From: a virus | IMG/VR virus record: IMGVR_UViG_3300015203_000005 | Span: 1-45,668 of that record | Reading direction: 5' to 3' (one strand) | DNA: 45,668 bases | Shown here: positions 100-45,668 of the stretch, one piece after another | Layout of the letters: every line of letters starts with the position of its first letter | Position numbering within the stretch: position 1 is the first letter of the stretch | Notes under the pieces: model-generated | Seen by the model: only the letters and a program-made list of their open reading frames with translations | Database searches by the model: none | What the model was told of the DNA's origin: nothing | Program-made: the position numbers and the translations under genes

Positions 100-874
100 G
101 GATATGGCGGTGAGTAATATATGTGCAGCGATGGAGGCTGACAATGTATTGTTAAAGAAGAAAGGGCCGCTCGGTTTTATATCCCATGATGCGGCAGCGA
201 CTAAGGATAGTACGGCTGGTTATATCCCAATGGATGATGAAGAGAAAAAAGATTTACAGGACGATCTTTCGCGTTATGGTATGTCATGGGATCAATTTCA
301 ATTCGTTGTCAGTAAGACGGCAGTGAAGTGGAACCCCATGTCGTTCGATGTAAAACAGCTTGGAACTAAGGAGACAGTATTGGCCGGGGCGAGAGCGATT
401 TGTCAACGTTACGGTTTTCCATTTGTGTTATTTGAAGATAGTGATGCTACGTATGCGAATCAGGAAAGTGCACACAAAAAATTGTACGACGGGAATATTG
501 TACCAAATAATCAACGCGATCTGACAAAGTATAATATGTTTTTCAAAGCGTTGGATAATAATTGTAAGTTGGTGATGGACTTTAGTCACTTGGCTATTTA
601 TCAAGAGGATGAACTTAATGCTGGTCGCGCCCGTGCGTACAATGATCAGGGTTTGCAAATGGAATACCTGAATGATATTATTACTAAGAATCAATGGCTT
701 GAAAAGTTGGGATTGGATATGATCGGGCCAGAAGGGGATAAACTGTATTCACAAAGTGCCGGCAAACTTGCGAATGATAATGTAAAACTTACTCAAATTG
801 CGGCAAAGCCATCAATGAACGGAAATGGAAAGCAAACGCAACCTATTATATCAGATAATATAACTTCAAATTAG
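1..874 (+). CDS. Portal protein, C-terminal part (same ORF as 44992..45668, joined across the circular junction; about 483 aa in total)
   Basis: The frame open at the window end re-enters at base 2 through the 99-bp overlap and stops at 872-874. Lies between large terminase and prohead protease. Size is typical of a portal. Confidence 0.8.
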   Translation, partial: FYLEPQEVFILEDSFVPNFQRNFLLPQSRLVGLDMAVSNICAAMEADNVLLKKKGPLGFISHDAAATKDSTAGYIPMDDEEKKDLQDDLSRYGMSWDQFQFVVSKTAVKWNPMSFDVKQLGTKETVLAGARAICQRYGFPFVLFEDSDATYANQESAHKKLYDGNIVPNNQRDLTKYNMFFKALDNNCKLVMDFSHLAIYQEDELNAGRARAYNDQGLQMEYLNDIITKNQWLEKLGLDMIGPEGDKLYSQSAGKLANDNVKLTQIAAKPSMNGNGKQTQPIISDNITSN

Positions 875-875
875 T

Positions 876-1022
876 ATGGATACACCAAATTCACCAATGA
901 CACCAGATAATACTTTAGGTGGCAGTGCATATTTGCCGAAGCCTAAAGTAGCTAAAGGAGTAACGAAGGCACCCAGGGTGCAGCCAACATTTGCGAAAAA
1001 AGTTTTAAAAGGAAAAAAATGA
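876..1022 (+). CDS. 48-aa protein sharing the NSPMTP-NTLGGSAYLPKP motif with the major capsid protein
   Basis: ATG 2 nt after the portal stop; its stop overlaps the next ATG (ATGA-type coupling). 18/19 aa identical to MCP residues ~194-212, with weaker similarity over ~38 aa. Confidence 0.45.
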   Translation: MDTPNSPMTPDNTLGGSAYLPKPKVAKGVTKAPRVQPTFAKKVLKGKK

Positions 1023-1150
1023 TGGTTACAAAATCAAAAGCGGAACCTGTAGGTAGTCGTACCAAAAGAATATTGGTGCATAATGAAATCGGTAAGGCAG
1101 ATAACAAGAGTTATCAAGAGAAAGTAGCGGAGAGTACAAAGAAAAAGTAA
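1022..1150 (+). CDS. 42-aa lysine-rich hypothetical protein
   Basis: ATG overlaps the preceding TGA. Fills the gap before the protease. Below the ORF-track cutoff, translated by hand. Confidence 0.35.
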   Translation: MVTKSKAEPVGSRTKRILVHNEIGKADNKSYQEKVAESTKKK

Positions 1151-1155
1151 AGTGT

Positions 1156-1791
1156 ATGAAACTTAAGAATTTTAAATCCGGTGTAGTGGACGTTACTGAA
1201 AAAGGTATCGTTACTATTTCTATATCCAAGTTTGATAATGAGGATTTGGGTGGCGATATAGTGCGTAAGGGGGCGTTTATGAAAACATTCAGCGAAAGCG
1301 GCAGCCGTATCAAACATGTAATAGATCATGAACTACGGTATAAAGGTATAGTGGGGCTGCCTGTAAAGATGTACGAAACTTCTACTCATGCTGTTGTTGA
1401 GTCAGCGTTGAATCTTGAGAAACAAACTGCGCGTGATCTTTTTAGCGATTACAAATTTTTCAAAGAGCATCAAAAGACATTGGAGCATTCATATGCCTAT
1501 GAGACAGTACGCGGTAAGGCCATACCGATGAAAGGTGAAGAAATACACGAGCTGAAGATGTATGAGTATTCTACCGTGGCTTTGGGTATGAATCCAGAAA
1601 CGTCGTTACTAGATATAAAATCGTTTGGCGGAGTTGAGGCTTTGGAAGGCTATTTACGTAAATATGATGTATCTGGTAAACGTGCGAAAGAAATTGAAGC
1701 GATTATTAAACAGATAAAACAACTTGGCACCCCTGAGTTGAACAGCACCCCTGACATGTTGGTGATCGGCGAGTATACGTTAACACTTTAA
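1156..1791 (+). CDS. Prohead maturation protease (HK97 gp4 / S78-like)
   Basis: N-terminal DNEDLGGDIVRKGAF...IKHVIDHE pattern typical of HK97-family prohead proteases. Located between portal and capsid genes. Confidence 0.8.
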   Translation: MKLKNFKSGVVDVTEKGIVTISISKFDNEDLGGDIVRKGAFMKTFSESGSRIKHVIDHELRYKGIVGLPVKMYETSTHAVVESALNLEKQTARDLFSDYKFFKEHQKTLEHSYAYETVRGKAIPMKGEEIHELKMYEYSTVALGMNPETSLLDIKSFGGVEALEGYLRKYDVSGKRAKEIEAIIKQIKQLGTPELNSTPDMLVIGEYTLTL

Positions 1792-1806
1792 AAAAAATTA
1801 AACAAG

Positions 1807-3282
1807 ATGAAAAACGAACTTGGAAAAAATGTAACTGCATTTAAGCGGTTGTTCAAGTTCCCAGAAATCCGAACTGGATGGGGACTTTTTGCAATTTGTT
1901 TTATGCTAACGCTTGCCGTTGTGGTGAGTGCTGTATATCATCCGTTGGCAGGATTTGCGATGTTGGCCATTGCGCCAGTATTGCGGTTCAAACGGGATGG
2001 GATGACGGCTGATAATATTAAGTATTTGGAAATGCTTGAAAAGCAGTTCGAAGGATTTCCAGAGACGATGACAAAGGAAGAGATTGAGGTGCAGGTTAAG
2101 AAATTTAGTAATGAGGAGTTTGAGAAGCGTGTAACGGCTTTACTTAAGGATATTGATCCTGAAAAGCTAAAAGCACTCTTATCAGATGATTCAAAAGGTA
2201 TTAAGGCTATTTTGCTTGCGCAAGGTGAAGCTATTACGGCTCTTAAGGCCGGTAAAGCAGCAGAAGAAGAGGTTATTAAAAGCATACGCACTCAGGTAAA
2301 GGAATGGCAAACGACAAACAAAGATGCTATTGCTAAAGTAAAAGCGATGCAGTCTAAAGACTTACCCGAGTTTCAGCTTAAGGTAAACAGTCCGATGACG
2401 CCCGCCAATACTCTTGGTGGATCAGCGTATTTGCCTAAACCTGAATATATGCCAGGTGTTATTGATCTGGTTCGTATCCAGCCTGTGTTTTGGGATTATA
2501 TTACAAAAGGCCGCACTGGCTCTGCTGCGTATGTGTGGATAAACAAAACTACTCCGCTTGGTGCTGCTGCTTGGATTGCGCCTGGTGTATTGAAGCCTGG
2601 TGTCAGTTTTCAGTTGGCATCTGAAATTTCGGTGGCTAAAAAAATTGCCGCATCAGACAAAACCACTACTGAGTTACTTGACGATATTGATGGGATGACT
2701 ACATTCATTACTCAAGAGTTGCAGTACCAGTTGTATGCTAAGTTGAATACTGTACTTATGACAAGTGCGTTGAGTTCCACTCAGCCGGCCGGCATTCAAA
2801 CCGTTAGCGTACCATTTAGTGCGGCTGGTCTTGCGACTGCCAACCCTAATAACATGGATTGTATTCGTGCTATTGTAGCACAACTCCGTGGAGCAAACTT
2901 CGGCATATCATACGGTCCGGTTACGGTGTTTATTAATCCGATTGACGCTGCTAATATGGATATGGCAAAGGCTTCGACTAGTGGTGTGTATATTTTACCT
3001 CCATTTGTTACTGCCGATGGCCGGTCAATTGCCGGTGCCATCGTAGTAGAGGACAATAATGTACCAGTTGGTTATATTCAAGCCGCGTTACTTAACTTGT
3101 TTAAGGTTCTTATCTATAAGGATGTGACGCTGACTTGGGGTTGGGAAAACGATGACTTCACGAAGAATCTTATTACAGCCATTATTGAAATGAGGCTTCA
3201 TTCGTTTCACAGTGCAAACTATAACGGAGCATTTATTTATGACACGTTCGCAAACATCAAAGCCCTAATTGTGGCAGTATAA
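1807..3282 (+). CDS. Major capsid protein, HK97 fold, with a ~190-aa N-terminal delta/scaffold-like region
   Basis: Directly follows the protease. Coiled-coil-like N-terminal third, then an NTLGGSAYLP N-arm-type motif and a long beta-rich C-terminal part. 491 aa. Confidence 0.85.
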   Translation: MKNELGKNVTAFKRLFKFPEIRTGWGLFAICFMLTLAVVVSAVYHPLAGFAMLAIAPVLRFKRDGMTADNIKYLEMLEKQFEGFPETMTKEEIEVQVKKFSNEEFEKRVTALLKDIDPEKLKALLSDDSKGIKAILLAQGEAITALKAGKAAEEEVIKSIRTQVKEWQTTNKDAIAKVKAMQSKDLPEFQLKVNSPMTPANTLGGSAYLPKPEYMPGVIDLVRIQPVFWDYITKGRTGSAAYVWINKTTPLGAAAWIAPGVLKPGVSFQLASEISVAKKIAASDKTTTELLDDIDGMTTFITQELQYQLYAKLNTVLMTSALSSTQPAGIQTVSVPFSAAGLATANPNNMDCIRAIVAQLRGANFGISYGPVTVFINPIDAANMDMAKASTSGVYILPPFVTADGRSIAGAIVVEDNNVPVGYIQAALLNLFKVLIYKDVTLTWGWENDDFTKNLITAIIEMRLHSFHSANYNGAFIYDTFANIKALIVAV

Positions 3283-3286
3283 AACT

Positions 3287-3538
3287 ATGGTAAAGGATGA
3301 AGAAGATGTAGCAGGTATTACCGGCATTCCGGGTACTGGCAAGGCTGGAAAGAAACCAGGAAAAACTACCCCAAGTTATCTCGACAAAGATGGTAACACG
3401 GTGGATTTTAATAAACGTGTGAAGCTTAAGGCAACTGATAAGGCTTTGTTCCATAATAAGGATAAAGTGTTTGAGGCCGGATTGGTATTGGCGAATAAGA
3501 TGGTAGCTGACGGTCACGCAGAACTTGTAAAAGAATAA
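3287..3538 (+). CDS. Hypothetical head-module protein (83 aa)
   Basis: ORF 3269..3538; the first ATG after the MCP stop is 3287 (MVKDEED...). Confidence 0.5.
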   Translation: MVKDEEDVAGITGIPGTGKAGKKPGKTTPSYLDKDGNTVDFNKRVKLKATDKALFHNKDKVFEAGLVLANKMVADGHAELVKE

Positions 3539-25286: not shown

Positions 25287-25509
25287 GGGGTGATCCGATT
25301 TTAGTTAGTGCTGGCAATCCAATTTTCCTAGCATCACCATACACTCCTTTCTCATCAACTCTAAACCAAGCAACTGAAAGACCAGAAACAATTTGAACGT
25401 GGAGCGATGGGTAATCATAAACAATAATTAGTTTAGATACTTTTATACCACTTAATAAAAGTCTCAAATTCTCCATTGTAGGATTACTCACCGTATCATT
25501 TATATTCAT
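25252..25509 (-). CDS. 85-aa hypothetical protein, low-GC
   Basis: ATGA coupling to the upstream ORF. Last gene of the leftward operon. Confidence 0.5.
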   Translation of the reverse strand: MNINDTVSNPTMENLRLLLSGIKVSKLIIVYDYPSLHVQIVSGLSVAWFRVDEKGVYGDARKIGLPALTKIGSPLKPQILVVHDL

Positions 25510-34562: not shown

Positions 34563-34639
34563 TGGAGAAACTTGGATTCGAACCACATCTCAGGTCGGAG
34601 TCCGGACGCCTGCGCTTTGCCATTAAGCTATGTTTCCCC
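34563..34639 (-). tRNA. tRNA-like element 3 (77 nt) with G3-U70 and A73; possible CCG anticodon loop, but weak anticodon stem
   Basis: GGGGAAA/TTTCTCC acceptor including G3.U70; D stem GCTT/AAGC with loop AATGGCA; TTCGAAT T loop; loop GUCCGGA fits the U33-NNN-R37 pattern. Confidence 0.55.
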
Positions 34640-35432: not shown

Positions 35433-35549
35433 ATGAAAAAACGAAAAAGGGTCATCGCTTTTAAAGTTTGTGACGCAGACCGGGCAGAGATTAAAAAAGC
35501 AGTTAGAAAAATTTTAGAAGCCAAAGGATATAAACTCTATAAGGTTTGA
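35433..35549 (+). CDS. 38-aa basic micro-protein
   Basis: MKKRKRVIAFKVCDADRAEIKKAVRKILEAKGYKLYKV. Its stop overlaps the polymerase TTG start. Confidence 0.35.
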   Translation: MKKRKRVIAFKVCDADRAEIKKAVRKILEAKGYKLYKV

Positions 35550-37324
35550 ACTACCTGGCAATTGATATAGAAACAATCGGCCTTGCGCCATACAATGGAT
35601 GTATATGGATGATTTCCATATGCGGTGCTGATTTAAAGCCCAGGGTTTTCCATGATTGCAACGGTATGAAACAATGCCCCAAGGAACTTGTTGCCATACT
35701 CCAGGATAAAAGTGTGTGCAAAGTAATCCATAATGGCGAATTCGATATGCCATATATAGAATTGAATTGGGGCATACGGATCAGGAACGTATGGGATACG
35801 ATGGTCGCAGAAAAAATCATACAAGGCGTAACGGCGGATGATAGAAAGGTATCGGAGGCATTTAATATAGCCCATTCTGCCAGCCTTAAATATACTTTGG
35901 CCCGCTATGGTTTACCAGTACCCAATAAATCTATACGGGAAAATTTTATTAATCGAAAAAAAGGCCGCCCCTTCACCAAAGAAGAGATACAATATGCAGG
36001 AGACGATGTAAAATACCTTTTACCACTTCGCAAAGCACAAGAACACTTGCTCACCCGTGACAAACTACTCGAAGTTGCACTCCTTGATAACAAGGTGGTG
36101 GAAAAAATTTCGCGCATGCGGGTATTGGGTGTCGGGGTAGATAAACAACGATGGTTAGAGGTTGCGGATACAAACCTACAGGAGTACAAACGTGCTGTGG
36201 CAATGCTGCCCAGGTCGGTGGCAAACTGGGGAAGCAACCAACAAGTAAAATACTACTTTAAACAAAAGTATGGTATTGTAATCGACACGTATAAAAACCT
36301 CAAGAAGATATACCTGACTACACGTAACCCGATGCTAGGGTTGTTTATCAAAACCCAAATGCTCTATTCAGACGCTACGGGGTATGGCAAGACCTGGTTA
36401 TATCGGGATGATGGGACAAGTTATATAGATGCAGATGGAAGGGTCCGGCCATCATATGACCAGAACAAAAATACCGGCCGGTTTTCCACCAGCAATCCCA
36501 ATGTCCTCGGTTTTCCACGCAAAGGACGGCAACGTAGCTGCATAGTTCCAAAGCCTGGACATGTTTTTGTAATAGGCGACTTTGCGGGGCAGGAAATCGC
36601 TATCATGGCGGCGGCATCTAAGGAGGATTTCTGGATTGATGCATTACTCCGTGGCGAAGATATTCACGGCCTAATGGCTTCTATTATTAGCGCAGATAGG
36701 TGGTTAAGGGCAAAAGAAAAAGGTTGTACATTTCCTAAAAAATGTAAATGCCCTGATCATATTGCACAGCGTGCACCGGCAAAAGAATCCAACTTTCTAC
36801 TAGCCTATGGCGGCGGTGCAGACAAACTATTAGAACGAATTATCAAAGGCATATTTGAAAAGGGTATACCTGATGCCAAAGAAATAGAACGCGTGATGGA
36901 TCTCAAGGCAGCAAAAATTTTCATACATAAACATAAAAGGGCACTTCGTAAGCTAGTGCGCTGGCTGGAACAAAATGGAAAAGATGCAATCAAGACTGGC
37001 ATTAGCTATTCGGCAGACCCATACCGTAGGCGGCGTGTACTTAAGGGTGAAGAAGAATGGCAAATACGGAATCAAGGAATGAACAATCCAGTGCAAAGTA
37101 GTGCGGCTAATATGATTAAAGTAGCGCTTATTTCCATGCCGGATGAGTATGATATTATATTGCCGTTCCATGATGAACTTGTGGCGGAGGTGCCGAAAAA
37201 AATTGCCAAAAAATGCGCCATTGTTATGGCAAAGATAATGGAAGATGCCGCAGACTACATTACAGGCATCCACGGACTTATACGAGCAGATGTAAAAATT
37301 CAAAATGACTATACTAAAAACTAA
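35546..37324 (+). CDS. Family A DNA polymerase with 3'-5' exonuclease domain
   Basis: LAIDIETIG (Exo I), GDFAGQEIAIMAA (motif A), RAPAKESNFLLAYGGG (motif B), PFHDELVAEV (motif C). Confidence 0.9.
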   Translation: MNYLAIDIETIGLAPYNGCIWMISICGADLKPRVFHDCNGMKQCPKELVAILQDKSVCKVIHNGEFDMPYIELNWGIRIRNVWDTMVAEKIIQGVTADDRKVSEAFNIAHSASLKYTLARYGLPVPNKSIRENFINRKKGRPFTKEEIQYAGDDVKYLLPLRKAQEHLLTRDKLLEVALLDNKVVEKISRMRVLGVGVDKQRWLEVADTNLQEYKRAVAMLPRSVANWGSNQQVKYYFKQKYGIVIDTYKNLKKIYLTTRNPMLGLFIKTQMLYSDATGYGKTWLYRDDGTSYIDADGRVRPSYDQNKNTGRFSTSNPNVLGFPRKGRQRSCIVPKPGHVFVIGDFAGQEIAIMAAASKEDFWIDALLRGEDIHGLMASIISADRWLRAKEKGCTFPKKCKCPDHIAQRAPAKESNFLLAYGGGADKLLERIIKGIFEKGIPDAKEIERVMDLKAAKIFIHKHKRALRKLVRWLEQNGKDAIKTGISYSADPYRRRRVLKGEEEWQIRNQGMNNPVQSSAANMIKVALISMPDEYDIILPFHDELVAEVPKKIAKKCAIVMAKIMEDAADYITGIHGLIRADVKIQNDYTKN

Positions 37325-37326
37325 CT

Positions 37327-37962
37327 ATGAAAACCAAACTGCCACCAATCACCTGGTCATCCCGCGAGGTTGACACAAAGGCCATCGCGCCAACGCCGAA
37401 CAATTTTAAAATCAAAACAGACTTGGGCAAAGCCCGGTTCCTGGCATCCGTTGGATCGTTTGGCCGCGCAGGTACAGTCATTTGTAACTGGGCCGCGAAA
37501 TTTGGCGACATCACGAAATTAATCCTTATTGATGGTAATAGCCGTTGGGAAGACGCCATAGAAAAGAAGGAACGCCGTATATGGGTATCACTACCATCCC
37601 GCATACTTACACCTACCGAGTTTAAGGAGTTTAGTGCCATGATAGATTTTGCAAAAGCCGGAGAGGTGGATATGAACCGAATCGAACAAGAGCTTGGTAC
37701 CACTAAATCGTTTTTTGATAAGTACGGCCTGGAAGTGCCAATGGAAAAACTAAATGAACTTGGCGCGAAGGCAGGAAAGGGTCCGGCCAAGACAGAAACT
37801 AAAGAAGTCGCGCCGCCGATAGAAATTGACGAATATCCTGTTACGCTGTTCTTTAACAAGAAGCAGGAGGCGGAGTTTCGGAAGATTGAGGAACGGCTGA
37901 AGGTTAAGCTAAAGACTATTTCAACCTCTGATACGGTGCTGAAGGCGCTGAGGAAGTTATGA
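37327..37962 (+). CDS. ParB-like nuclease domain protein
   Basis: LILIDGNSRWEDAI matches the ParB/Srx DGxxR core. Commonly found next to phage methylases. Confidence 0.65.
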   Translation: MKTKLPPITWSSREVDTKAIAPTPNNFKIKTDLGKARFLASVGSFGRAGTVICNWAAKFGDITKLILIDGNSRWEDAIEKKERRIWVSLPSRILTPTEFKEFSAMIDFAKAGEVDMNRIEQELGTTKSFFDKYGLEVPMEKLNELGAKAGKGPAKTETKEVAPPIEIDEYPVTLFFNKKQEAEFRKIEERLKVKLKTISTSDTVLKALRKL

Positions 37963-38663
37963 AGTACATGGGAAGCAAAGGCAGGATTGCAAAACACTTG
38001 CTACCGATTATACTCAAAGATCGTAAACCAGATCAATGGTATGTGGAGCCATTCTGCGGTGGTTGCAATATGCTTGATAAGGTTACTGGACCACGTATCG
38101 GTGCAGACGCCATGCCAGAGGTTATTGCAATGTTTAAGGCTATGCAACAAGGCTGGCTGCCACCTAAACATATTACAGAAGATGAATGGGTACGCGTACG
38201 AAAAAATTCTGCCGACTTAGCCTTACGTGGATACATTGGTTTTGGTTTCTCCTTTGGCGGTGGTTTCTTTAATTCAATAGCCCGACACGAACGCGTTAAA
38301 GGAAGTTACAAATCCTCTAACAAAATGAATACGCAAGTATATGCGTCATTTATAAAACAAATATCTTTACTTCAGGACGTTATATTTATTTTGAGTGACT
38401 ATCGTAACTTACGCTTACCACCACAAAGTCTTATATATTGCGACCCGCCATACGCCGGAACACAAAACTATAAATCTGGCGCGTTCAACGGCAATGAGTT
38501 TTATGATTGGTGCCGAACCAAAAAAGCCGAAGGGCATACTATATTTATATCAGAATACCGTATGCCAAAAGATTTTAAATGTGTTTTTGCAAAATCACAC
38601 AAAGTACATTTGAATGCAATCAACGGAGTCAAGGATCGTATTGAAAAACTGTTTACCCTATGA
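37959..38663 (+). CDS. Dam-type N6-adenine DNA methyltransferase (D12 class)
   Basis: MKYMGSKGRIAKHLLP N-terminus and catalytic IYCDPPYAGT. Confidence 0.85.
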   Translation: MKYMGSKGRIAKHLLPIILKDRKPDQWYVEPFCGGCNMLDKVTGPRIGADAMPEVIAMFKAMQQGWLPPKHITEDEWVRVRKNSADLALRGYIGFGFSFGGGFFNSIARHERVKGSYKSSNKMNTQVYASFIKQISLLQDVIFILSDYRNLRLPPQSLIYCDPPYAGTQNYKSGAFNGNEFYDWCRTKKAEGHTIFISEYRMPKDFKCVFAKSHKVHLNAINGVKDRIEKLFTL

Positions 38664-38983: not shown

Positions 38984-39193
38984 ATGACAAACTTAACACT
39001 TGAAGAAATTTATTGCTACTACCACCGGCTCTTTTCCATTGTATATGACGGAAACGAATTAAACGTGGTCCGAGAACGAGATAAGCAACTAATTGCCAGT
39101 GTCCCAGTTGGTCGAAACCGTGATCTTATTAAAGATACGTTTTATGCCTTAAAAAATAAATACATACTAGACTACGACAACGCCTGTGTCTAA
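38984..39193 (+). CDS. 69-aa hypothetical protein
   Basis: ORF track. Confidence 0.5.
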   Translation: MTNLTLEEIYCYYHRLFSIVYDGNELNVVRERDKQLIASVPVGRNRDLIKDTFYALKNKYILDYDNACV

Positions 39194-41573
39194 CGAAAAA
39201 GAGATACAAAGCCTCCACGACCAAGGCTTTGTTATTCTACGCGCACAACGTACCACCAATGCCCCGATAGGTTGGAAGCGAAAGCTAAGTCCGACCAATA
39301 AAGTCAAGTGGGGGTATGCGGCAGAAATGGCTGACCCACTTCTGTCCGTGTACCATTCTACCTTCAATGCGGCGATTCTATCGCGTTCGCATTGCGGATT
39401 CTATTTGGGGTGGGGCAACCTGTGTTGTATTGATCTGGATACTAAAAAGATTGACGAGGCGACTACTACGGCGCTAAAAAATCAGATTATAAAAAAACTA
39501 GGTGCCAATGTAGTAGTGGAACAAACAAAATCAAACGGGTACCACATCTATTTCCTGTATGAACAGCGTCTGGACAACATACCGGATTGGACCGGGCAGA
39601 ATGGAACGAACTGGATCGAAATGTACTACAGTAAGCGATTTATTGCTTGCTATCTGTCTAACTCTAAGAAATATAAACTTGAGCACGGTAGTTTACTTAC
39701 TCTTAAGCCGCTTAGTTCCACCCAGCACAAGGCATTGTTAACGATCCTGGCGCCGTATAAAGGAAAAAAATCCGCCACAAGGAAGCAAAGCAGTACCACA
39801 CCCATAGATGACGAGACGTGGGAACAGGCCGAGGCATACGTAAAGCAAATAGAGGAAAAGGAACTGGATGTTACAGGTGACAATCCTGAGTGGTTCAAGA
39901 TTGGTAAAGGGTTTGCTAATGCGTTTGGGGCAAAGGGTTTTGATATGTTCAACAGGCTGTCCCAGTTTTCTCCACTTTACAATGCCGATACAATCGAAAC
40001 CGACTATGGAAATTTTTGCAACGGCGAAAAAAATCCGCCAAAGAAGAAACTCACCATTGCCACCTTTTTTAAGATATGTGAAGATAACGGCCTGCTTGAT
40101 TTAAACACCTTGCAAACTTTAAAGCTGAATCCACCGGCCAGTGTAAAGGAGTTTGAACTAACGTTGACTAAGAAGGAGAGAATGCCGGAACACGTACACA
40201 AATTAGTAAGCGCATTCGTACAGCATGTGGAAATATGTTGTATTGACCAGGCCAGCTTCTTTATCTTCGAACAGACGCATTGGGTAAAACGAAACGCAAA
40301 GTTTGTAGTTGATCTTATAAACAATTTTGTAGATCGGTCGGACGTTGAGGATCGCTATCGCAACTTACTTCGCACTGTGCCGTATCTTAAGATGGCAATT
40401 GAGGAACTAAAACTGACCACTATGCGGGAGGCACTAGAGCCACGTACCGGCAACCTGCACGATGGCGTGTTTATTAATCTTGAGAACGGTGTGCTGCATA
40501 TTAATATAAAGACTGGAAAACGAAAACTATTAGACCATGAATCAAGCTACAATTTCACGACGTTGTTACCATACTGCTATGAACCTGCCACGACCTGTCC
40601 GCGTTTTGACACATGGTTATCCACGCAGGTACCAGACACCACGTTGCATGAGGCTTACTTCGCATTTGTTGCGTCGTGTCTCACAAAACATAAAGCCGAT
40701 ATTATCATGCTACTCGTGGGAGATACAAGTACTGGGAAATCATCTCTCATCGAGATTACGCGGCGGGTCATCGGCCTTGATAATGCTGTTGCGGTTTCTG
40801 CTGGTATCCTCTTTGGTGGAACACCAGAGGCGCAGACGCAAGCCATGATGATGGAAAACAAACTATTGGCCTATGACTTTGATTCCCAACCATTTAAACA
40901 CTTGGAGATGTTGCTTAAGGTTGCGGCGCAGGAACCGTTACCCGGCTGGCAGATGCACGTCACACGGCGGCCGGTGATTAACTATGGGCGGCTGCTCGTT
41001 GCAATGAACAGATACAGTTATAGCGTTTTTAATCCGGCTGTCGCACGGCGCCTGATTACCATTCCAATGGACGTACAGGTTAAAAAGGATAACACCATTA
41101 TGCCGGCGATATATGATAACGAGCTGGCTGGTATCTTTAACCATGTGGTAAATGACGGCCTAAAGCATTTGATCGAGAATGGTGGGCAGATACATATAAC
41201 GGATGCAATGCGGCAGGCCACAGTCGATTTCCATATGCGCGAGCGAGATAGCGTGCGGTGGTTTAAAGATAATTATACAGTACCAAAAGAAAGTAGTGAT
41301 AAAAGTAATAGATTAACAGCAAAACAAAAGTTAGAAAAAGCTAATGACGAGCTTAAGATTGAATTATTTACTGTCTCTGAAATGTACAAAAAGTTTAAGG
41401 ACTATATGACTGACGAAGAAAATATGCCGGAAATACGGGTGCAGATGCGAAAACATTTTGCGCAAGACCTTAAGTTAATTGGTATTGAGGATAAGGTCTA
41501 TAAAACTGCTACAGAAAAAACCGATTGGGGGATTTACTTACATAAAATAAAACAAGATGAAAAAACAAAATGA
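39186..41573 (+). CDS. Primase-polymerase / SF3 helicase fusion (P4/D5-type replicative primase-helicase)
   Basis: N-terminal prim-pol-like CCIDLDTK ... GYHIYF. C-terminal Walker A LLVGDTSTGKSS. 795 aa. Confidence 0.85.
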   Translation: MSNEKEIQSLHDQGFVILRAQRTTNAPIGWKRKLSPTNKVKWGYAAEMADPLLSVYHSTFNAAILSRSHCGFYLGWGNLCCIDLDTKKIDEATTTALKNQIIKKLGANVVVEQTKSNGYHIYFLYEQRLDNIPDWTGQNGTNWIEMYYSKRFIACYLSNSKKYKLEHGSLLTLKPLSSTQHKALLTILAPYKGKKSATRKQSSTTPIDDETWEQAEAYVKQIEEKELDVTGDNPEWFKIGKGFANAFGAKGFDMFNRLSQFSPLYNADTIETDYGNFCNGEKNPPKKKLTIATFFKICEDNGLLDLNTLQTLKLNPPASVKEFELTLTKKERMPEHVHKLVSAFVQHVEICCIDQASFFIFEQTHWVKRNAKFVVDLINNFVDRSDVEDRYRNLLRTVPYLKMAIEELKLTTMREALEPRTGNLHDGVFINLENGVLHINIKTGKRKLLDHESSYNFTTLLPYCYEPATTCPRFDTWLSTQVPDTTLHEAYFAFVASCLTKHKADIIMLLVGDTSTGKSSLIEITRRVIGLDNAVAVSAGILFGGTPEAQTQAMMMENKLLAYDFDSQPFKHLEMLLKVAAQEPLPGWQMHVTRRPVINYGRLLVAMNRYSYSVFNPAVARRLITIPMDVQVKKDNTIMPAIYDNELAGIFNHVVNDGLKHLIENGGQIHITDAMRQATVDFHMRERDSVRWFKDNYTVPKESSDKSNRLTAKQKLEKANDELKIELFTVSEMYKKFKDYMTDEENMPEIRVQMRKHFAQDLKLIGIEDKVYKTATEKTDWGIYLHKIKQDEKTK

Positions 41574-41985
41574 TTTCTTTAACCTGGGTGAAGGATTTTC
41601 ACCTGAGCATGATCAATTAGTATTTGAGGCGGAAGCCTATTTTAAAAAACAATTCAACGTTAGTAAAGTAAGTTATGAAGTACCGTTAATAGCACGAAAC
41701 AATTTTATTGTGGGCTATGTAGATTTACTCATTGAAACAACCTATAAGAGTAAAATAGATAAATGTAATTATGCTGGATGTTCATTAGTGGTTGAGGTTA
41801 AGCCTACTATCGGTTCATTTGGCGCGCTACTTAGGCAATTAAACACATACAAACTGCATCTGAATAGAATTAATAAACCAGAAATATGTGTCTACAGCAA
41901 CGATACACGATTTAGTGCACAGCTTGAATCTCAGGGATATATCCAGTATTTCAAAGGCAAAAAACTACCTAAGAAAAAGGCCTAA
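41557..41985 (+). CDS. PD-(D/E)XK-fold nuclease candidate (Hjc/VRR-Nuc-like)
   Basis: GYVDLLIE ... LVVEVKPTIGSFGALLRQL fits the D...ExK...Q spacing. Confidence 0.5.
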   Translation: MKKQNDFFNLGEGFSPEHDQLVFEAEAYFKKQFNVSKVSYEVPLIARNNFIVGYVDLLIETTYKSKIDKCNYAGCSLVVEVKPTIGSFGALLRQLNTYKLHLNRINKPEICVYSNDTRFSAQLESQGYIQYFKGKKLPKKKA

Positions 41986-42200
41986 GTTTTACTTACCGAT
42001 GGGGGGCAAAAACTACTTACCGACAAAAAGTGCTTAGTATAACCGCCTAGGCGGGTATAAGTTTTACTTACCGACTCGCCCGACGAAGGCCCTAACTGCC
42101 TGATAACCAATACAGTAAGTCGGTAAGTAGAATAGTTCATGATAGGTTGGGCTCTGATATTTGTATATGGCTCCCTTAGCGGCCAAGTTTTACTTACCGA
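41984..42200. repeat. Iteron array: 4 direct and 1 inverted copy of (AAGTTT)TACTTACCGA
   Basis: Direct copies at 41984-41999, 42008-42023 (variant), 42059-42074 and 42185-42200. Inverted copy TCGGTAAGTAG at 42120-42130. Partial copy at 42330-42339. Confidence 0.85.
42038..42059. repeat. 22-bp near-perfect palindrome TATAACCGCCTAGGCGGGTATA
   Basis: The core CCGCCTAGGCGG is a perfect 12-bp palindrome. Embedded in the iteron array. Confidence 0.8.
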
Positions 42201-42327
42201 GCAGAATAGGGTGGAAAACCGGATTAAGTAAATTTGTAGTAATTTTACATTATGGTTAACAAAAACCGGAACCATCCCCTAGAAGGCCAACCCTCAGCGC
42301 AGAGGTTAAAATAGTCGGCTTGCCGGG

Positions 42328-42546
42328 ATGGTTTTACTTTTAAATGAAATGGAACTGCCGATAATTATTGAAGGATGGCTGAACTTGTTGACTGGGGAGA
42401 ACCGGGCGCTGATGGAAGTGCGGATACAAATCTGCCAGCGATGCGAATATTTTGGCGTGCTTGGAAACTGTTCATTTGGTTGTAATTGTATAATGCGGGC
42501 GAAGGCGAGTGTGAAGCAGGCCAGGTGCCCGGCAAAGAAATGGTGA
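42328..42546 (+). CDS. Small Cys-rich (zinc-ribbon-like) protein upstream of the small terminase
   Basis: CQRC-x8-C-x3-CNC-x11-C. Stop overlaps the terS ATG. The start could instead be ATG 42349. Confidence 0.5.
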   Translation: MVLLLNEMELPIIIEGWLNLLTGENRALMEVRIQICQRCEYFGVLGNCSFGCNCIMRAKASVKQARCPAKKW

Positions 42547-43214
42547 AGCATAAAAATGGTAAGGCGGTGCAAGTTGCTCCTGTTGTTGAGGTAGACGAGG
42601 TGGAGCCGGATGCGTTTAAGAGTCTGAGCGATCAGGATAAGGAATTTTGTCGTGAGTACATATACGATTGGAACGGGCGCCGGGCGGCGCAAAAAATCTT
42701 TGGGTACAAAAATGAAATAACGGCGGCCAATAAAGCAGCGGACATACTTAGGCGGAAACGAATAAGGATGTACTGCGACTACTTGAATGAGAATACGGAA
42801 CAGGTCGTCGGGGTGTCTCGCGCCTGGGTATTGGAACAACATCTAAAGATAGTCCGTAGTTCAGTGGCCCACTTGCATGATACCTGGATAACGTTGCGGG
42901 ACTTTGAGCAGCTAACAGACGACCAGAAATATTGTATAGAGGAAATCGTGACACAGACTAGGCGCGAGGTGGCTGAAGGAATCAACCCAGACGAAGAAGT
43001 GCAGATCGATGTGGACTATGTCAAGATCAAACTATTCAATAAACAAAAATCCCTTGACGCCATTACGCGTATGATGGGTTATGATAAGGCGCAGCGGATT
43101 GACGTTACAAGCGGTGGAAAAGCAATAGAGCTAGGTGGTACAGTAAACGTGCAGATCAATATTTATAATAATGCGCCGCCATTGGCCTCAAGTGAAAAGG
43201 ATATACAAGCATGA
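42540..43214 (+). CDS. Terminase small subunit
   Basis: FCREYIYDWNGRRAAQKIFGY...AANKAADILRRKRI is typical of Terminase_2-type small subunits. Directly upstream of terL. Confidence 0.75.
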   Translation: MVKHKNGKAVQVAPVVEVDEVEPDAFKSLSDQDKEFCREYIYDWNGRRAAQKIFGYKNEITAANKAADILRRKRIRMYCDYLNENTEQVVGVSRAWVLEQHLKIVRSSVAHLHDTWITLRDFEQLTDDQKYCIEEIVTQTRREVAEGINPDEEVQIDVDYVKIKLFNKQKSLDAITRMMGYDKAQRIDVTSGGKAIELGGTVNVQINIYNNAPPLASSEKDIQA

Positions 43215-43348
43215 GTATATACGAACTTATAATTGCATTGGGCAGATTTCGGACGGCAGAGCGAAGACGATATTATCAAGAGCGCGCTGTATATAGGGCC
43301 GAAATTTTACTTGAGTGGAAAATTTACCCATACATACATCTTAACTAG
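43211..43348 (+). CDS. 45-aa hypothetical protein
   Basis: ATGA overlap with the terS stop. Hand translated. Confidence 0.3.
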   Translation: MSIYELIIALGRFRTAERRRYYQERAVYRAEILLEWKIYPYIHLN

Positions 43349-44589
43349 TGACAGCAGCTCCTATCGTTCGACTGGATGGTATATTTGATACCGGTCCTAT
43401 CTTTCAAGAGTTACAGACGCCTGCACTCGTCAAGGCCGACATCGTTATTTTACAAGGTGGAACTGATAGTGGAAAGACCTACACCACCATGCAGTATCTT
43501 TTCATAGTAGCGTGTACAACCAAACCTCCGGCGATTGATCCCATTATTTCCATAGTCAACAAGTCTATACCGGACAGTAAGAAGGGCGCGTATCGGATAG
43601 CCGAATCCATTTATCATTCTAATGAGTTTGTGAGCAGCCAGGTGGTTAACTGGAACCAGGGCGAGCGCGTCGTTACGTTTAAGAGTGGGTGGATAATGGA
43701 ATTTTTGGGCGCTACTGATGAACAGTCGGCAAAGCAAGGCAAGCGGCAATATCTTTTTGTTAATGAGGCCAATGGTATAAGTTACCCGGTGTTTTGGCAG
43801 TACGCAAAGCGTACACGTATTAAGACGATTATTGACTATAACCCGAGCGCGCCTTTTTGGGCACATGACAAGTTGATTGGAACCACGAAGGATGGAAATG
43901 ATTTGTATGCCAATGTCGAGACACGGATAAGCGACCATAGGCACAATCCATTCTTAGATGAGCGCGACCATGCTAAGACAGAAAACATAAAGGATAAGAA
44001 TCTATTTGACGTATATGCACGTGGGCGCACTGGTAACCTCATTGGTATTATTTATCCAGACTGGACGATGATTGCCGATAAGGATTTCCCGTGGACAGAG
44101 GAACGTTTAATCGGCGGCATTGATTTTGGTTATACAAATGACCCAACTGCGGCCGTGCTGATTGCTCGCATTGCGAATAGTATCTATGTGCATGAGTTGT
44201 GTTACCAACCCGCTATGACGCCGACGCAAATCTTCGCGCTGTATAAAAGCGTATTGGATACAAAAGAAAAACCAGACGCACACCGCAACTTTAATCTTTA
44301 TTGTGAGCATGATGGTGATATGATTCGTCAGCTCCGTACGTTGGGTATGCGGCGGGCGATCCCGGCGCGTAAAGGACCGAATAGTATCAATCCCGGGATC
44401 AGTAAGGTAAAGGAGTACAGGGTGTTTTATACGGCGTCATCGGCTAACATTGATATGGAACGCAAGCGGTATATGTGGCAGATTGACGAAGATACTGGTA
44501 AGCCGATAAACGTACCGAGTGAGGGCTTTGATCACTTGATGGATGCCGTGCGCTATGCTGTTTATACGCATTTTTACCGTAAAACGTAA
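43348..44589 (+). CDS. Terminase large subunit (PBSX/Terminase_3-like)
   Basis: VILQGGTDSGKTYT (Walker A), YLFVNEANG (Walker B), nuclease GIDFGYTNDPTA and FDHLMDAVRYAVY. GTG start. Confidence 0.9.
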   Translation: MTAAPIVRLDGIFDTGPIFQELQTPALVKADIVILQGGTDSGKTYTTMQYLFIVACTTKPPAIDPIISIVNKSIPDSKKGAYRIAESIYHSNEFVSSQVVNWNQGERVVTFKSGWIMEFLGATDEQSAKQGKRQYLFVNEANGISYPVFWQYAKRTRIKTIIDYNPSAPFWAHDKLIGTTKDGNDLYANVETRISDHRHNPFLDERDHAKTENIKDKNLFDVYARGRTGNLIGIIYPDWTMIADKDFPWTEERLIGGIDFGYTNDPTAAVLIARIANSIYVHELCYQPAMTPTQIFALYKSVLDTKEKPDAHRNFNLYCEHDGDMIRQLRTLGMRRAIPARKGPNSINPGISKVKEYRVFYTASSANIDMERKRYMWQIDEDTGKPINVPSEGFDHLMDAVRYAVYTHFYRKT

Positions 44590-44995: not shown

Positions 44996-45668
44996 ATGAA
45001 TTTGGGCCAAGTAGTTTCTGGAATAATATGTTCGGAACTATTGGTCAGAGTTCTGGGCTAGGTCGGCTTCCTGCCGATATAGGTTTTATACCTACCGATA
45101 ATAAAGGTACGACAATTCAACTCAAGGGTGAGACGGCGGTATGGTTGGGACTCAATGTTCCAATTCAGCAGAAGTATGCGTATGACTATTGTTTTCCACT
45201 TGCGTCTGTTATTGATCGGTTAGCTGAAAGTGATATTACTGGGCATGTCGAAATACTGCGTGCTACTGGCAAGGGCAAAGAAAATTTTGCAACAAACGAA
45301 TGGGCAATGCTGATGACGAAGCGGTTGCTGCAACCAAATCCACTTCAAACATGGGAGCAATTTCGTGGGCAGCAGGTGGTATATAAAAAAGTATACGGGT
45401 TTTGTCCGGTATTTCCGGTTATACCGGCAGGTTTCGGACCAGAGTTTTGTAGCAGTATGGTAAACCTACCACCCTGGTTGTTTGATGCTGAGCCGACAAA
45501 TGATTGGTTATACAAGACAAAAATAGAGGAGATAGTCAAGCGCTACCGCGTCTCAATACTTGGTAAGATTTTTTACCTAGAGCCGCAGGAAGTATTTATT
45601 CTCGAAGATAGCTTTGTACCTAATTTCCAGCGCAATTTTTTATTGCCTCAGTCGCGCCTTGTTGGATT
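44992..45668 (+). CDS. Portal protein, N-terminal part (continues at base 100 of the window through the circular junction)
   Basis: ATG 44992 is open to the window end. The frame is continuous with ORF 74..874 once the 99-bp overlap is collapsed. Confidence 0.8.
   Translation, partial: MNEFGPSSFWNNMFGTIGQSSGLGRLPADIGFIPTDNKGTTIQLKGETAVWLGLNVPIQQKYAYDYCFPLASVIDRLAESDITGHVEILRATGKGKENFATNEWAMLMTKRLLQPNPLQTWEQFRGQQVVYKKVYGFCPVFPVIPAGFGPEFCSSMVNLPPWLFDAEPTNDWLYKTKIEEIVKRYRVSILGKIFYLEPQEVFILEDSFVPNFQRNFLLPQSRLVG
45570..45668. repeat. Terminal overlap identical to 1-99
   Basis: See the first feature. Confidence 0.95.

Follow-up and report, generated by a model that had tools for sequence, protein, structure and literature searches.

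Our analysis of the window, the whole 45,668-nt stretch of phage DNA under study, indicated that positions 41984-42200 are likely to serve as an iteron-type replication origin of the phage. As judged from the sequence, the iterons are most likely read by the C-terminal domain of the phage primase-helicase and not by a packaging enzyme. The sequence-only reading had proposed either an origin or a pac/cos site. The origin half of this proposal is favored because the array follows the primase-helicase gene in approximately 17 lineages, whatever packaging genes lie downstream, and co-diverges with the C-terminal domain of that protein, whereas the pac/cos half is at odds with the independence of the array from the terminase. 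The coordinates of the features discussed here are collected in Table 1.

Table 1. Features of the putative origin region and its surroundings, in positions of the window
Feature	Position	Strand	Remarks
211-aa ORF	37327-37962		Conserved in most related replication modules; candidate binder if the repeats were operator or centromere-like sites
D5-like primase-helicase gene	39186-41573	+	PHROG DNA-primase families; weak Pfam matches
C-terminal ~106 residues of primase-helicase	41253..41573	+	Proposed iteron-reading domain; winged-helix-like secondary structure
ORF142	41557..41985	+	Window-specific; inserted between primase-helicase gene and array; not part of the origin
Iteron 1	41984..41999	+	Exact AAGTTTTACTTACCGA; begins at the ORF142 stop codon
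Iteron 2	42008..42023	+	Variant AAAAACTACTTACCGA; contains the exact 10-nt core; 24 nt after iteron 1
Iteron 3	42059..42074	+	Exact AAGTTTTACTTACCGA; aligned with the direct iteron doublet of relatives
Central conserved box	42093..42110	.	TAACTGCCTGATAACCAA; between direct and inverted iterons
Inverted iteron	42120..42132	-	TCGGTAAGTAGAA; minus-strand core exact
Spacer	42133..42184	.	From inverted iteron to last direct iteron, diverging; candidate unwinding and helicase-loading region
Iteron 4	42185..42200	+	Exact AAGTTTTACTTACCGA; 126 nt after iteron 3
AT-rich conserved box	42224..42262	+	~78% AT, including TAGTAATTTTACATTATGGT; nearly invariant in the window, L021, L022, L039, and L174
Three-helix hairpin, 68 nt	42268..42335	+	Separate element; followed after 13 nt by the likely DUF6171 start (42349)

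The three exact copies of AAGTTTTACTTACCGA (at 41984, 42059, and 42185), the variant AAAAACTACTTACCGA at 42008, and the inverted copy TCGGTAAGTAG at 42120-42130 that had been described were all verified in the sequence. The 10-nt core TACTTACCGA occurs in five exact copies, four direct and one inverted, all within 41990-42200, and no further exact copy was found elsewhere in the 45.6-kb genome. When up to one mismatch was allowed, nine matches were counted against 2.8 expected, a number reached in none of 100 shuffles, and in an unbiased scan for 8-mer clusters the array stood out as the densest repeat cluster in the window, with 5 copies per 300 bp compared with at most 3 elsewhere. The spacing of the copies recurs in relatives (related loci are given L numbers): the 20-24-nt pair spacing of iterons 1 and 2 is present there, the 126 nt between iterons 3 and 4 are also found in L040, L041, and L047 (127 nt in L044), and one or two inverted copies occupy the position of the inverted iteron of the window. 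A degenerate second inverted copy, CAGTAAG, is located just upstream of the inverted iteron at 42113-42119. No DnaA box (TTATNCACA, at most one mismatch) was detected in 41986-42340, and the window-wide count of this motif was at chance level. The cumulative GC skew, which mirrors gene orientation and has its maximum at 25314, was uninformative on the origin, and the promoter and terminator scan of the array region remained at chance level. An exact 16-mer scan of IMG/VR returned 20 single, unrelated matches, the motif itself not being shared, and none of 50,697 phage records matched 41500-42900 at the nucleotide level.

The array is built around two further elements, the central box and the spacer. 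The bottom strand of the central box, TATCAGGCAGTTA, differs at a single position from the IHF consensus of E. coli, WATCAANNNNTTR. A one-mismatch match of this kind was at chance level when the window alone was scanned for the IHF consensus; among the 17 arrays examined, a central box was found at the same place in 15 despite their differing iterons, and 11 of these 15 boxes, as read from the listed sequences, match WATCAANNNNTTR exactly. The core-to-core spacer of the window (42128-42192) measures 65 nt, a length kept exactly in 8 of 16 lineages and within 63-67 nt in three more. In relatives, the spacer (63-77 nt; 65-79% AT) is flanked by an iteron doublet on either side. The spacer of the window has 60% AT versus 57% for the genome, with one clean iteron on each side plus a degenerate partner, and both this AT content and the single clean inverted copy flanking the spacer were counted against the origin reading.

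Several neighboring features required correction. The gene context of the array was right, comprising the primase-helicase, a Cys-rich DUF6171 ORF, TerS, and TerL, except for the label "nuclease" attached to the 142-aa ORF at 41557-41985 (ORF142), for which no Pfam, PHROG, or PDB family match was obtained and whose homologue is absent from every related locus. ORF142 places 411 nt between the primase gene and the array, an arrangement also counted against the origin reading. The 22-bp palindrome TATAACCGCCTAGGCGGGTATA (42038-42059) exists as a near-palindrome with one mismatch, but it is specific to the window: it lies on a 12-nt insertion relative to L021 and L039 and is also absent in L022. 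As RNA, it folded no better than shuffles (z = -0.06) and was not flagged as a terminator, and the near-palindrome is probably without function in the origin. The supposed partial copy of the motif at 42331-42339, GTTTTACTT, does not belong to the iterons but forms the 3′ arm and tail of the separate conserved hairpin; the segment stays GGTTTTTTAATTTT in relatives whose iterons differ. The probable start of the DUF6171 gene is 42349 and not 42328.

The product of the gene upstream of the array matched PHROG DNA-primase families (E = 3e-27). Of its Pfam matches, those to D5_N (21.3 bits against a cut-off of 22.4) and DUF5906 (19.8 against 27.6) were below threshold and that to PriCT_2 was at the cut-off, and its homologues carry DUF5906 and Prim-Pol matches. 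A profile search gave a weak match to poxvirus D5 (E = 0.13), and PDB sequence searches with the single sequence and with the profile gave no usable match. In tblastn searches against phage records, only partial matches with 24-27% identity and no cultured relative were found. The C-terminal domain is less conserved than the protein as a whole, with 32-48% identity to most homologues and 20-25% to the three most distant, compared with 54-77% for the entire sequence. Its confident AlphaFold2 model (pLDDT, 87), with the element order H-S-H-H-S-S, looks like a winged helix. This assignment draws on the predicted secondary structure because Foldseek returned nothing at E ≤ 0.001, the best values being 0.045 for the long model and 1.2 for the short one. 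The top, non-significant Foldseek matches were ORC/Cdc6 winged helices and the C-terminus of AsfvPrimPol; the P4 origin-binding domain (1KA8) ranked 13th (E = 1.3; TM, 0.21-0.35) and was outside the top 50 for the short model.

To define the linkage of the array, we surveyed approximately 17 distinct lineages with primase-helicase homologues of 31-77% identity. In every fetched locus holding a homologous primase-helicase 3′ end, the densest 8-mer cluster was situated after the primase stop codon. It contained 3-8 copies per 300 bp (just 3 in the two most distant relatives, L170 and L171), which occurred in both orientations. The array usually starts 0-100 nt past the stop codon, with small extra ORFs intervening in L046, L169, and the window. 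In related phages, the positions and orientations of the copies, the central box, and the spacer are conserved. The motif itself differs from lineage to lineage and is changed in all copies at once (e.g., TACTTACCGA, TTGTTACCGAG, TTGTAACCGA, TTGTAATCGA, TTGTATTCGA, TTAGTAGCGA, ATTAAACGA, TGTTACTA, and CTGTAAGGAT). The layout kept across lineages consists of direct copies, the central TAACTGCTTGATWAYCAA box, inverted copies, a spacer of about 65 nt, and direct copies.

This survey also bears on the pac/cos reading, according to which the small terminase (42543-43214), perhaps together with the Cys-rich DUF6171 protein, binds the repeats to start packaging. Repeats close to terS are a typical feature of pac sites, and in the window and its closest relatives the array lies approximately 350-550 nt upstream of the DUF6171-TerS-TerL genes; furthermore, the circular assembly with a 99-bp overlap is compatible with headful packaging, without locating a pac site. 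However, the array stays with the primase-helicase where the terminase is unrelated or distant: a terminase of an unrelated type follows it in L040, L042, L043, L044, L047, L176, and L177, and glycosyltransferase genes follow it in L170 and L171, with TerS 3 kb away in the latter. Conversely, loci with a homologous TerL (54-64% identical) and no upstream primase show only background clusters of 2-4 copies and no array, with the exception of L031. A diverged primase C-terminus in the ORF upstream in L031 was considered but not supported (E = 0.33). Moreover, L021 and L022 have TerS proteins with 98% identity and DUF6171 proteins with 97% identity, yet their arrays differ in motif, number, and orientation. 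We therefore consider a packaging site highly improbable.

The same pair illustrates which part of the locus the array does follow, since the primase bodies of L021 and L022 are 92% identical and their C-terminal domains only 38%. In L043 and L044, the primase bodies (95%) and the 211-aa ORFs (96%) are nearly identical, whereas the C-terminal domains are 63% identical and the iterons different. In L021 and L039, by contrast, the C-terminal domains are 100% identical and the arrays identical, with just 49% identity between the 211-aa ORFs. Sliding nucleotide identity in three pairs drops from 70-97% to approximately 40-60%, beginning about 300 nt before the primase stop codon, continuing through the array, and recovering past it. 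Across the three pairs, changes in the array go along with those in the C-terminal ~106 residues of the primase-helicase, and not with those in TerS, DUF6171, or the 211-aa ORF.

These comparisons weigh on the proposal that another replication-module protein uses the repeats as operator or centromere-like sites, for transcription control or partition rather than initiation. Most of the related replication modules have conserved the 211-aa ORF, which would be a candidate for such a protein, the array sits between two transcription units, and the IHF-like central box is flanked by repeats in both orientations, a layout similar to that of P1 parS, in which repeats flank a central IHF site. Nevertheless, the 211-aa ORF varies where the array does not (L021/L039) and stays constant where the iterons change (L043/L044), and L041 and L171 have arrays but lack a homologue of the ORF over the 2.9-4 kb of upstream sequence covered. 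For the 211-aa ORF, PHROG gave just a weak match and Pfam none, and no ParA-like gene was seen in the annotated neighborhood of the array. The constant position of the array at the primase stop codon would also be left unexplained, and we regard an operator or centromere as very unlikely.

The co-divergence of array and C-terminal domain has a limit of its own, as the two are adjacent and their joint divergence could partly reflect a single recombination block instead of functional coupling. The relation between domain and motif is also not one-to-one, because L040 and L043 share a common core motif while their C-terminal domains are 67% identical, and a simple residue-base code between domain and iteron was dropped because this pair contradicts it. 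In a single suggestive case, a conserved Arg is replaced by Trp in the wing of the window protein alongside a change from TG to AC in the iteron.

Downstream of the array, the AT-rich box and the hairpin form a second group of conserved elements. The hairpin comprises 23 pairs, 11 of which are changed on both sides; 98% of its cells are paired, compared with 31-55% in slid controls, and the observed values were reached in 0 of 500 shuffles. Each lineage folds the same shape independently. The hairpin appears to be an RNA rather than a DNA cruciform because its G-U pairs are found on the plus strand only, and, as far as its sequence indicates, it is probably a leader or terminator RNA preceding the packaging genes. 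In Rfam, no match at E ≤ 1 was found in 41500-42900 and none at the gathering score, and patterned hairpin scans of IMG/VR and JGI metagenomes returned only three already-known contigs. The AT-rich box is also recognizable in L175, where it carries a Bacteroidota -7-like TAnnTTTG, and may be a packaging-operon promoter or a second unwinding region. A scan with an AT-rich 14-mer, TAGTAATTTTACAT, was unspecific (at least 120 chance matches).

A related proposal is that the primase-helicase binds the array mainly for control, through autoregulation or "handcuffing," and that true initiation occurs elsewhere, for example at 42224-42335 in a pRN1-like manner. Autoregulation is common among iteron-binding initiators, a structure-conserved hairpin is present 68 nt past the last iteron, and 42220-42260 is the most AT-rich segment of the region. 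In pRN1, the origin of the primase-SF3-helicase-winged-helix protein is a stem-loop downstream of its gene (PMC4234260). Against this proposal, the hairpin and the AT-rich box are confined to the DUF6171-TerS clade (the window, L021, L022, L039, L174, and L175) and absent after the arrays of L040, L043, L168, L172, L176, and L177, the strand bias of the G-U pairs points to RNA, and the feature conserved throughout is the 65-nt spacer between diverging iterons. Initiation outside the array thus appears unlikely. With more reserve, we suggest that the hairpin and the AT-rich box might together constitute an undescribed cis-acting RNA at the junction of the origin and DUF6171-terS-terL, acting as a leader or conditional terminator that ties packaging-gene expression to transcription through, or replication from, the origin, or alternatively as a pRN1-like single-strand priming hairpin. 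Equally tentatively, and as a separate matter, the C-terminal domain and the iteron array may be exchanged as a cassette between co-infecting phages, which would thereby escape replication interference.

If the array is the origin, as we favor, the putative fused primase/SF3-helicase would recognize the TACTTACCGA repeats via its C-terminal domain of ~100 residues. The three direct sites and the central box would gather, and perhaps bend, the DNA, and the box may bind a host protein of the IHF/HU type. The inverted site and the last direct site, diverging across the spacer of about 65 nt, would position helicase rings on either side of it. The spacer would then open, the helicase would load itself, and the N-terminal primase would start synthesis for the phage family-A polymerase; replication would be bidirectional.

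An origin of this kind would be ordinary and already known, here in an uncultured phage group, and its closest analogue appears to be the PriRep/Rep origin of SaPIs. The Rep and PriRep proteins of SaPIs are SF3 helicases that use a C-terminal winged helix to bind iterons situated directly behind the rep ORF, and these iterons point in opposite directions on either side of an AT-rich center (PMC9371898). As in SaPI1 Rep1 and SaPI5 PriRep5, the initiator proposed here would be an SF3 helicase (primase-fused in PriRep5) with a C-terminal DNA-binding domain, both predicted in our case; short iterons lie downstream of its own ORF in opposite directions across a central region, and different elements pair different iterons with different C-terminal domains. 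In contrast, no sequence similarity was detectable, and neither the single-sequence nor the profile search of the PDB listed a SaPI Rep chain. Repeat length is 10-16 nt here and 5-6 nt in SaPIs, with only 5 copies in the window; the array has a conserved central non-iteron box, and the window spacer is weakly AT-rich; and, unlike a satellite, the phage has a complete, virulent-looking genome that encodes a family-A polymerase of its own. The relation is one of analogy in mechanism and not of family membership.

Similar comparisons apply to other replicons. In one polypeptide, the P4 alpha protein unites primase and SF3 helicase with a C-terminal origin-binding domain recognizing short repeats. 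The phage protein appears to share this domain combination, with origin binding by the C-terminus predicted, whereas P4 needs two repeat clusters, ori and crr, and only a single cluster (41990-42200) is present here; the structural similarity to 1KA8 was also not significant (E = 1.3). The pRN1 protein ORF904 (prim-pol, SF3 helicase, and winged helix) has the domain order predicted for the phage protein and a cis-acting site just 3′ of its gene (PMC4234260). However, the pRN1 origin is a stem-loop of ~100 nt without iterons, whereas in our phages the iteron array is conserved and the hairpin is clade-restricted and RNA-like. In the lambdoid ori (O protein, four iterons), pSC101, R6K, and P1 oriR, each replicon has its own initiator that binds the repeats, relatives exchange specificity cassettes, and IHF-type sites and AT-rich regions are present. 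These initiators recruit host DnaB through a loader, and DnaA boxes are often needed; the putative initiator described here would differ in carrying its own helicase and primase, and its origin region has no DnaA box.

Collectively, our findings point to a likely origin and its initiator for a large group of uncultured phages, whose host is probably a member of the Bacteroidota. The group is represented by over 60 recorded primase-helicase homologues, many of them on 35-45-kb contigs, and has no cultured relative closer than 27% identity. It follows that the intergenic region should not be annotated as a pac site. The approximately 15 naturally occurring combinations of a C-terminal domain with an iteron motif, set in a fixed layout, provide a data set for understanding how such domains read DNA, and these combinations may find use in the design of orthogonal replicons.

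Our analysis indicated that the most likely role of the iteron array, one that we consider rather probable, is that of an origin of replication used by the primase-helicase encoded beside it. The gene context described in the sequence-only reading, with replication genes before the repeats and a Cys-rich ORF and the small terminase (TerS) after them, agreed with the annotation. The 16-mer AAGTTTTACTTACCGA was found exactly three times as described, and both the variant, which has the same 10-nt core, and the inverted copy were confirmed. The core TACTTACCGA occurred five times exactly, all in 41990-42200 and nowhere in the rest of the genome (GC content, 43%); allowing up to one mismatch gave 9 matches against 2.8 expected, a count that none of the shuffles reached. 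An unbiased 8-mer cluster scan that counted both orientations identified the array as the densest cluster of the entire window. The repeats are real and far above chance. The 22-bp palindrome reported among them proved to be a near-palindrome on a 12-nt stretch missing in the closest relatives, with RNA folding no better than that of shuffles, and is probably not part of the origin. No DnaA box was present, and GC skew tracked transcription and was uninformative on the origin. The exact 99-bp terminal overlap showed the window to be a complete genome assembled as a closed circle (unique length, 45,569 bp), so the contig ends are uninformative on packaging termini.

Coordinates of the array, neighboring genes and related features (L numbers, related metagenomic loci)
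Feature	Location	Strand	Remark
Terminal overlap	1-99 = 45570-45668		99 bp, exact
tRNA model match	34563-34637	-	Rfam
Family-A DNA polymerase	35546-37324		
211-aa ORF	37327-37962		replication module
Dam-type methyltransferase	37959-38663		
D5-like primase-helicase	39186-41573		
Predicted wing, residue ~783	about 41532-41534		
ORF142	41557-41985		142 aa
Iteron array	41984-42200		
Exact 16-mers	41984, 42059, 42185		
Variant iteron	42008		
Near-palindrome	42038-42059		
Central box	42093-42110		
Inverted copy	42120-42130		
AT-rich box	42224-42262		between last iteron and hairpin
Three-helix hairpin, 68 nt	42268-42335	+	covariation
Hairpin in L021	6710-6777		
Hairpin in L022	1990-2057		
Hairpin in L039	8740-8807		
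Hairpin in L175	4472-4540		
Cys-rich DUF6171 ORF	probable start 42349		preceded by 342-nt gap
TerS	42543-43214		
Large terminase (TerL)	43348-44589		
L031 array	425-720		
L169 genes matching hypermodification families	884-3534		Pfam
L177 gene matching a hypermodification family	865-1725		Pfam

The region had no DNA-level match among phage records, and among cultured phages the primase-helicase had at best a partial-length match of 27% identity. Relatives were drawn from IMG/VR (TerL relatives at 18 loci and primase-helicase relatives at 9) and from a protein database with 66 primase-helicase homologues, most of them 54-77% identical and many on 35-45 kb contigs, through which 10 further loci were fetched. 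When the cluster scan was applied alike to every locus, the densest cluster lay 3' of the primase stop codon in every locus that includes the 3' end of a primase-helicase homologue (L021, L022/L045, L039-L044, L046, L047, and L168-L177; 31-77% identity; ~17 distinct lineages). Per 300 bp, these clusters comprised 3-8 copies, oriented both ways, with L170 and L171, the most distant relatives, having only 3. The arrays usually started 0-100 nt from the primase stop, and small extra ORFs are interposed in L046, L169, and the window. The array was followed by a DUF6171-TerS-TerL module in the window's clade, by a TerL only 23-28% identical in L040, L042, L043, L044, L047, L168, L173, and L176, by DUF5681 and Terminase_3 in L177, and by glycosyltransferase genes in L170 and L171, the TerS of L171 lying 3 kb off. 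Loci with a TerL 54-64% identical and no primase homologue (≤8 kb upstream) had background clusters only (2-4 copies), with L031 as the sole exception. Here, 8 copies of TGTTACCT in both orientations surround a very AT-rich centre of ~150 nt. The adjacent upstream ORF, at the contig edge, shows no relation to the primase-helicase of the window; downstream of the array lie a VRR-NUC-like ORF, TerS, and a TerL that shares 58% identity with that of the window. This array probably represents a further origin, whose core (GTTACC) is related but whose initiator differs. Judged from sequence comparison, the array goes with the primase-helicase across relatives and not with the terminase, which argues against a pac/cos role, the packaging alternative that the sequence-only reading had offered beside an origin.

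The motif was lineage-specific and the same in all copies of a lineage: TACTTACCGA in the window, TTGTTACCGAG in L021 and L039, TTGTAACCGA in L022, L040, L043, and L047, GTGTAACCGAA in L046, TAGTAACCGA in L177, TTGTAATCGA in L168, TTGTATTCGA in L174, TTAGTAGCGA in L172, ATTAAACGA in L176, TGTTACTA in L044, TGTAACT(T/A)A in L041, CTGTAAGGAT in L175, and CTTGTAACA in L173. The entire intergenic region of the window could be aligned with those of L021, L039, and L022, with iterons in the same columns. The lineages had a layout in common: a pair of direct copies with a spacing of 20-24 nt, another direct copy or doublet, a central box, one or two inverted copies, a spacer, and a final direct copy or doublet. 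Of 16 lineages, 8 (the window among them) had a core-to-core spacer of exactly 65 nt, and three others had one of 63-67 nt; AT made up 65-79% of the spacer in relatives and only 60% in the window, compared with a genome average of 57%. Iterons 3 and 4 were 126 nt apart in the window, L040, L041, and L047. The central box (approximately TAACTGCTTGATWAYCAA) was present in 15 of 17 arrays despite their differing iterons. Its bottom strand, read by eye against the IHF consensus WATCAANNNNTTR of E. coli, was a perfect match in 11 of 15 lineages, and the remaining four, the window included, differed at one position; since a one-mismatch match is at chance level within the window alone, the case for the box rests on conservation. 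We infer that the host is probably a member of the Bacteroidota, because a Shine-Dalgarno-like motif was found at only 2 of the 28 plus-strand gene starts in the window, with A-rich sequence upstream of the starts, as is typical of Bacteroidota and their phages.

Three pairs of relatives were taken as natural experiments. The arrays of L021 and L039 were identical, as were their C-terminal 106 residues (100%; primase body, 99%), and their 211-aa ORFs were 49% identical, this ORF being shuffled independently of the primase-helicase. L043 and L044 (primase body, 95%; C-terminal 106 residues, 63%; 211-aa ORF, 96%) carried TTGTAACCGA and TGTTACTA, respectively. L021 and L022 (primase body, 92%; C-terminal 106 residues, 38%) had TerS proteins 98% and DUF6171 proteins 97% identical, yet their arrays differed in motif, copy number, and orientation pattern. 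This also speaks against pac/cos, which is disfavoured; linkage to the primase-helicase and co-divergence of its C-terminal domain support the origin half of the initial proposal. Sliding nucleotide identity in three pairs fell from 70-97% to ~40-60% from ~300 nt before the primase stop through the array and then recovered (to 95-98% in L021 versus L022); the drop spans the gene's 3' end and the array, which therefore form one co-diverging block.

Relative to the window, the last 106 residues were 32-48% identical in most homologues and 20-25% in the three most distant, compared with 54-77% for the whole protein. The AlphaFold2 model of this domain is a confident one (pLDDT, 87), and its order helix-strand-helix-helix-strand-strand is that of a winged helix, which we treat as a putative fold assignment. 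Foldseek gave no significant match in the PDB; its list was topped, non-significantly, by the ASFV primase-helicase C-terminus, ORC/Cdc6 winged helices, and the P4 origin-binding domain (E = 1.3). L040 and L043 have the core motif in common with C-terminal domains only 67% identical, so the domain-motif relation is not one-to-one. In the predicted wing, the window has Trp (DWGIY) where 10 of 10 aligned relatives have Arg before a conserved Gly (RG[IVLM][YF]), and only the window's iteron has AC where other lineages have TG; this coincidence occurs once and does not amount to evidence for a recognition code.

Among the neighboring genes, ORF142, previously labeled a nuclease, matched no Pfam, PHROG, or PDB family. 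[quoted passage not shown] The 211-aa ORF is kept in most related replication modules (32-69% identity), with no Pfam match and only a weak PHROG match to phage DNA methyltransferases (N-terminal part). In the distant relatives L169 (Tet_JBP, ADDT, aGPT-Pplase3) and L177 (TAGT), replication-module genes had Pfam matches to DNA-hypermodification families, in place of which the window has the Dam-type methyltransferase and a nucleoside 2-deoxyribosyltransferase-like gene. The Rfam tRNA match was barely at the gathering score (29.5 versus 29 bits; E = 0.03), and ARAGORN found no tRNA in the window.

The supposed partial copy of the repeat at 42331-42339 belongs to a separate hairpin, whose start was also visible at the truncated end of L174. 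In the alignment, its 23 pairs were 98% paired, compared with 31-55% with partners slid; both sides had changed in 11 of 23 pairs, and 0 of 500 shuffles reached the observed measures, with only three independent lineages contributing. Each sequence alone gave the same fold (z-scores, -2.5 to -3.8), the unpaired stretches UUAAAA and CUAGA were conserved, and G-U pairs were limited to the plus strand, a restriction that favours an RNA transcribed in the gene direction. No Rfam family matched, and pattern scans of IMG/VR and JGI metagenomes returned only already known contigs. The hairpin was confined to the clade with DUF6171-TerS and was missing 3' of the arrays in L040, L043, L168, L172, L176, and L177, so its distribution is not that of the origin. 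Its end is a U-run, 13 nt 5' of the likely DUF6171 start, ATG 42349 (MELPIIIEGW...). The starts in L021, L172, and L175 align with this ATG, which is probably to be preferred to the ATG 42328 chosen initially; the latter falls within the hairpin's 3' arm, and its L021 equivalent runs into a stop codon. The AT-rich box (~78% AT, including TAGTAATTTTACATTATGGT) was nearly invariant in five relatives, and the aligned L175 sequence, TACCTTTG, is a perfect Bacteroidota -7 motif (TAnnTTTG). The box is a candidate promoter for the packaging operon, and the hairpin is read as a putative leader or conditional terminator of that operon.

Alongside the observed linkage, layout, and co-divergence of the array, we infer an iteron-type origin at which the fused primase/SF3-helicase would bind the repeats via its C-terminal domain. 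DNA opening and helicase self-loading would take place where the inverted and final direct sites diverge across the 65-nt spacer, and the N-terminal primase would then prime synthesis by the phage polymerase. The same logic has been described for SaPI Rep and PriRep, SF3 helicases with a C-terminal winged helix; the iterons that they bind lie immediately 3' of the rep ORF on both sides of an AT-rich centre in opposite directions; in SaPI5, primase and Rep form one polypeptide (PMC9371898). Homology of the window's primase-helicase to these proteins was not detectable at the sequence level, so the relation is one of mechanism and not of family membership. The P4 alpha protein is a second analogue, although P4 needs two repeat clusters and the window has a single one. 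The pRN1 protein has the same architecture as the window's primase-helicase, but its origin, downstream of the gene, is of a different type, a stem-loop (PMC4234260). An origin of this kind has precedents. What is new is the phage group, the length of the iterons, the constant 65-nt geometry combined with a central box conserved across lineages, and the way in which the C-terminal domain and the array clearly co-diverge like a cassette.
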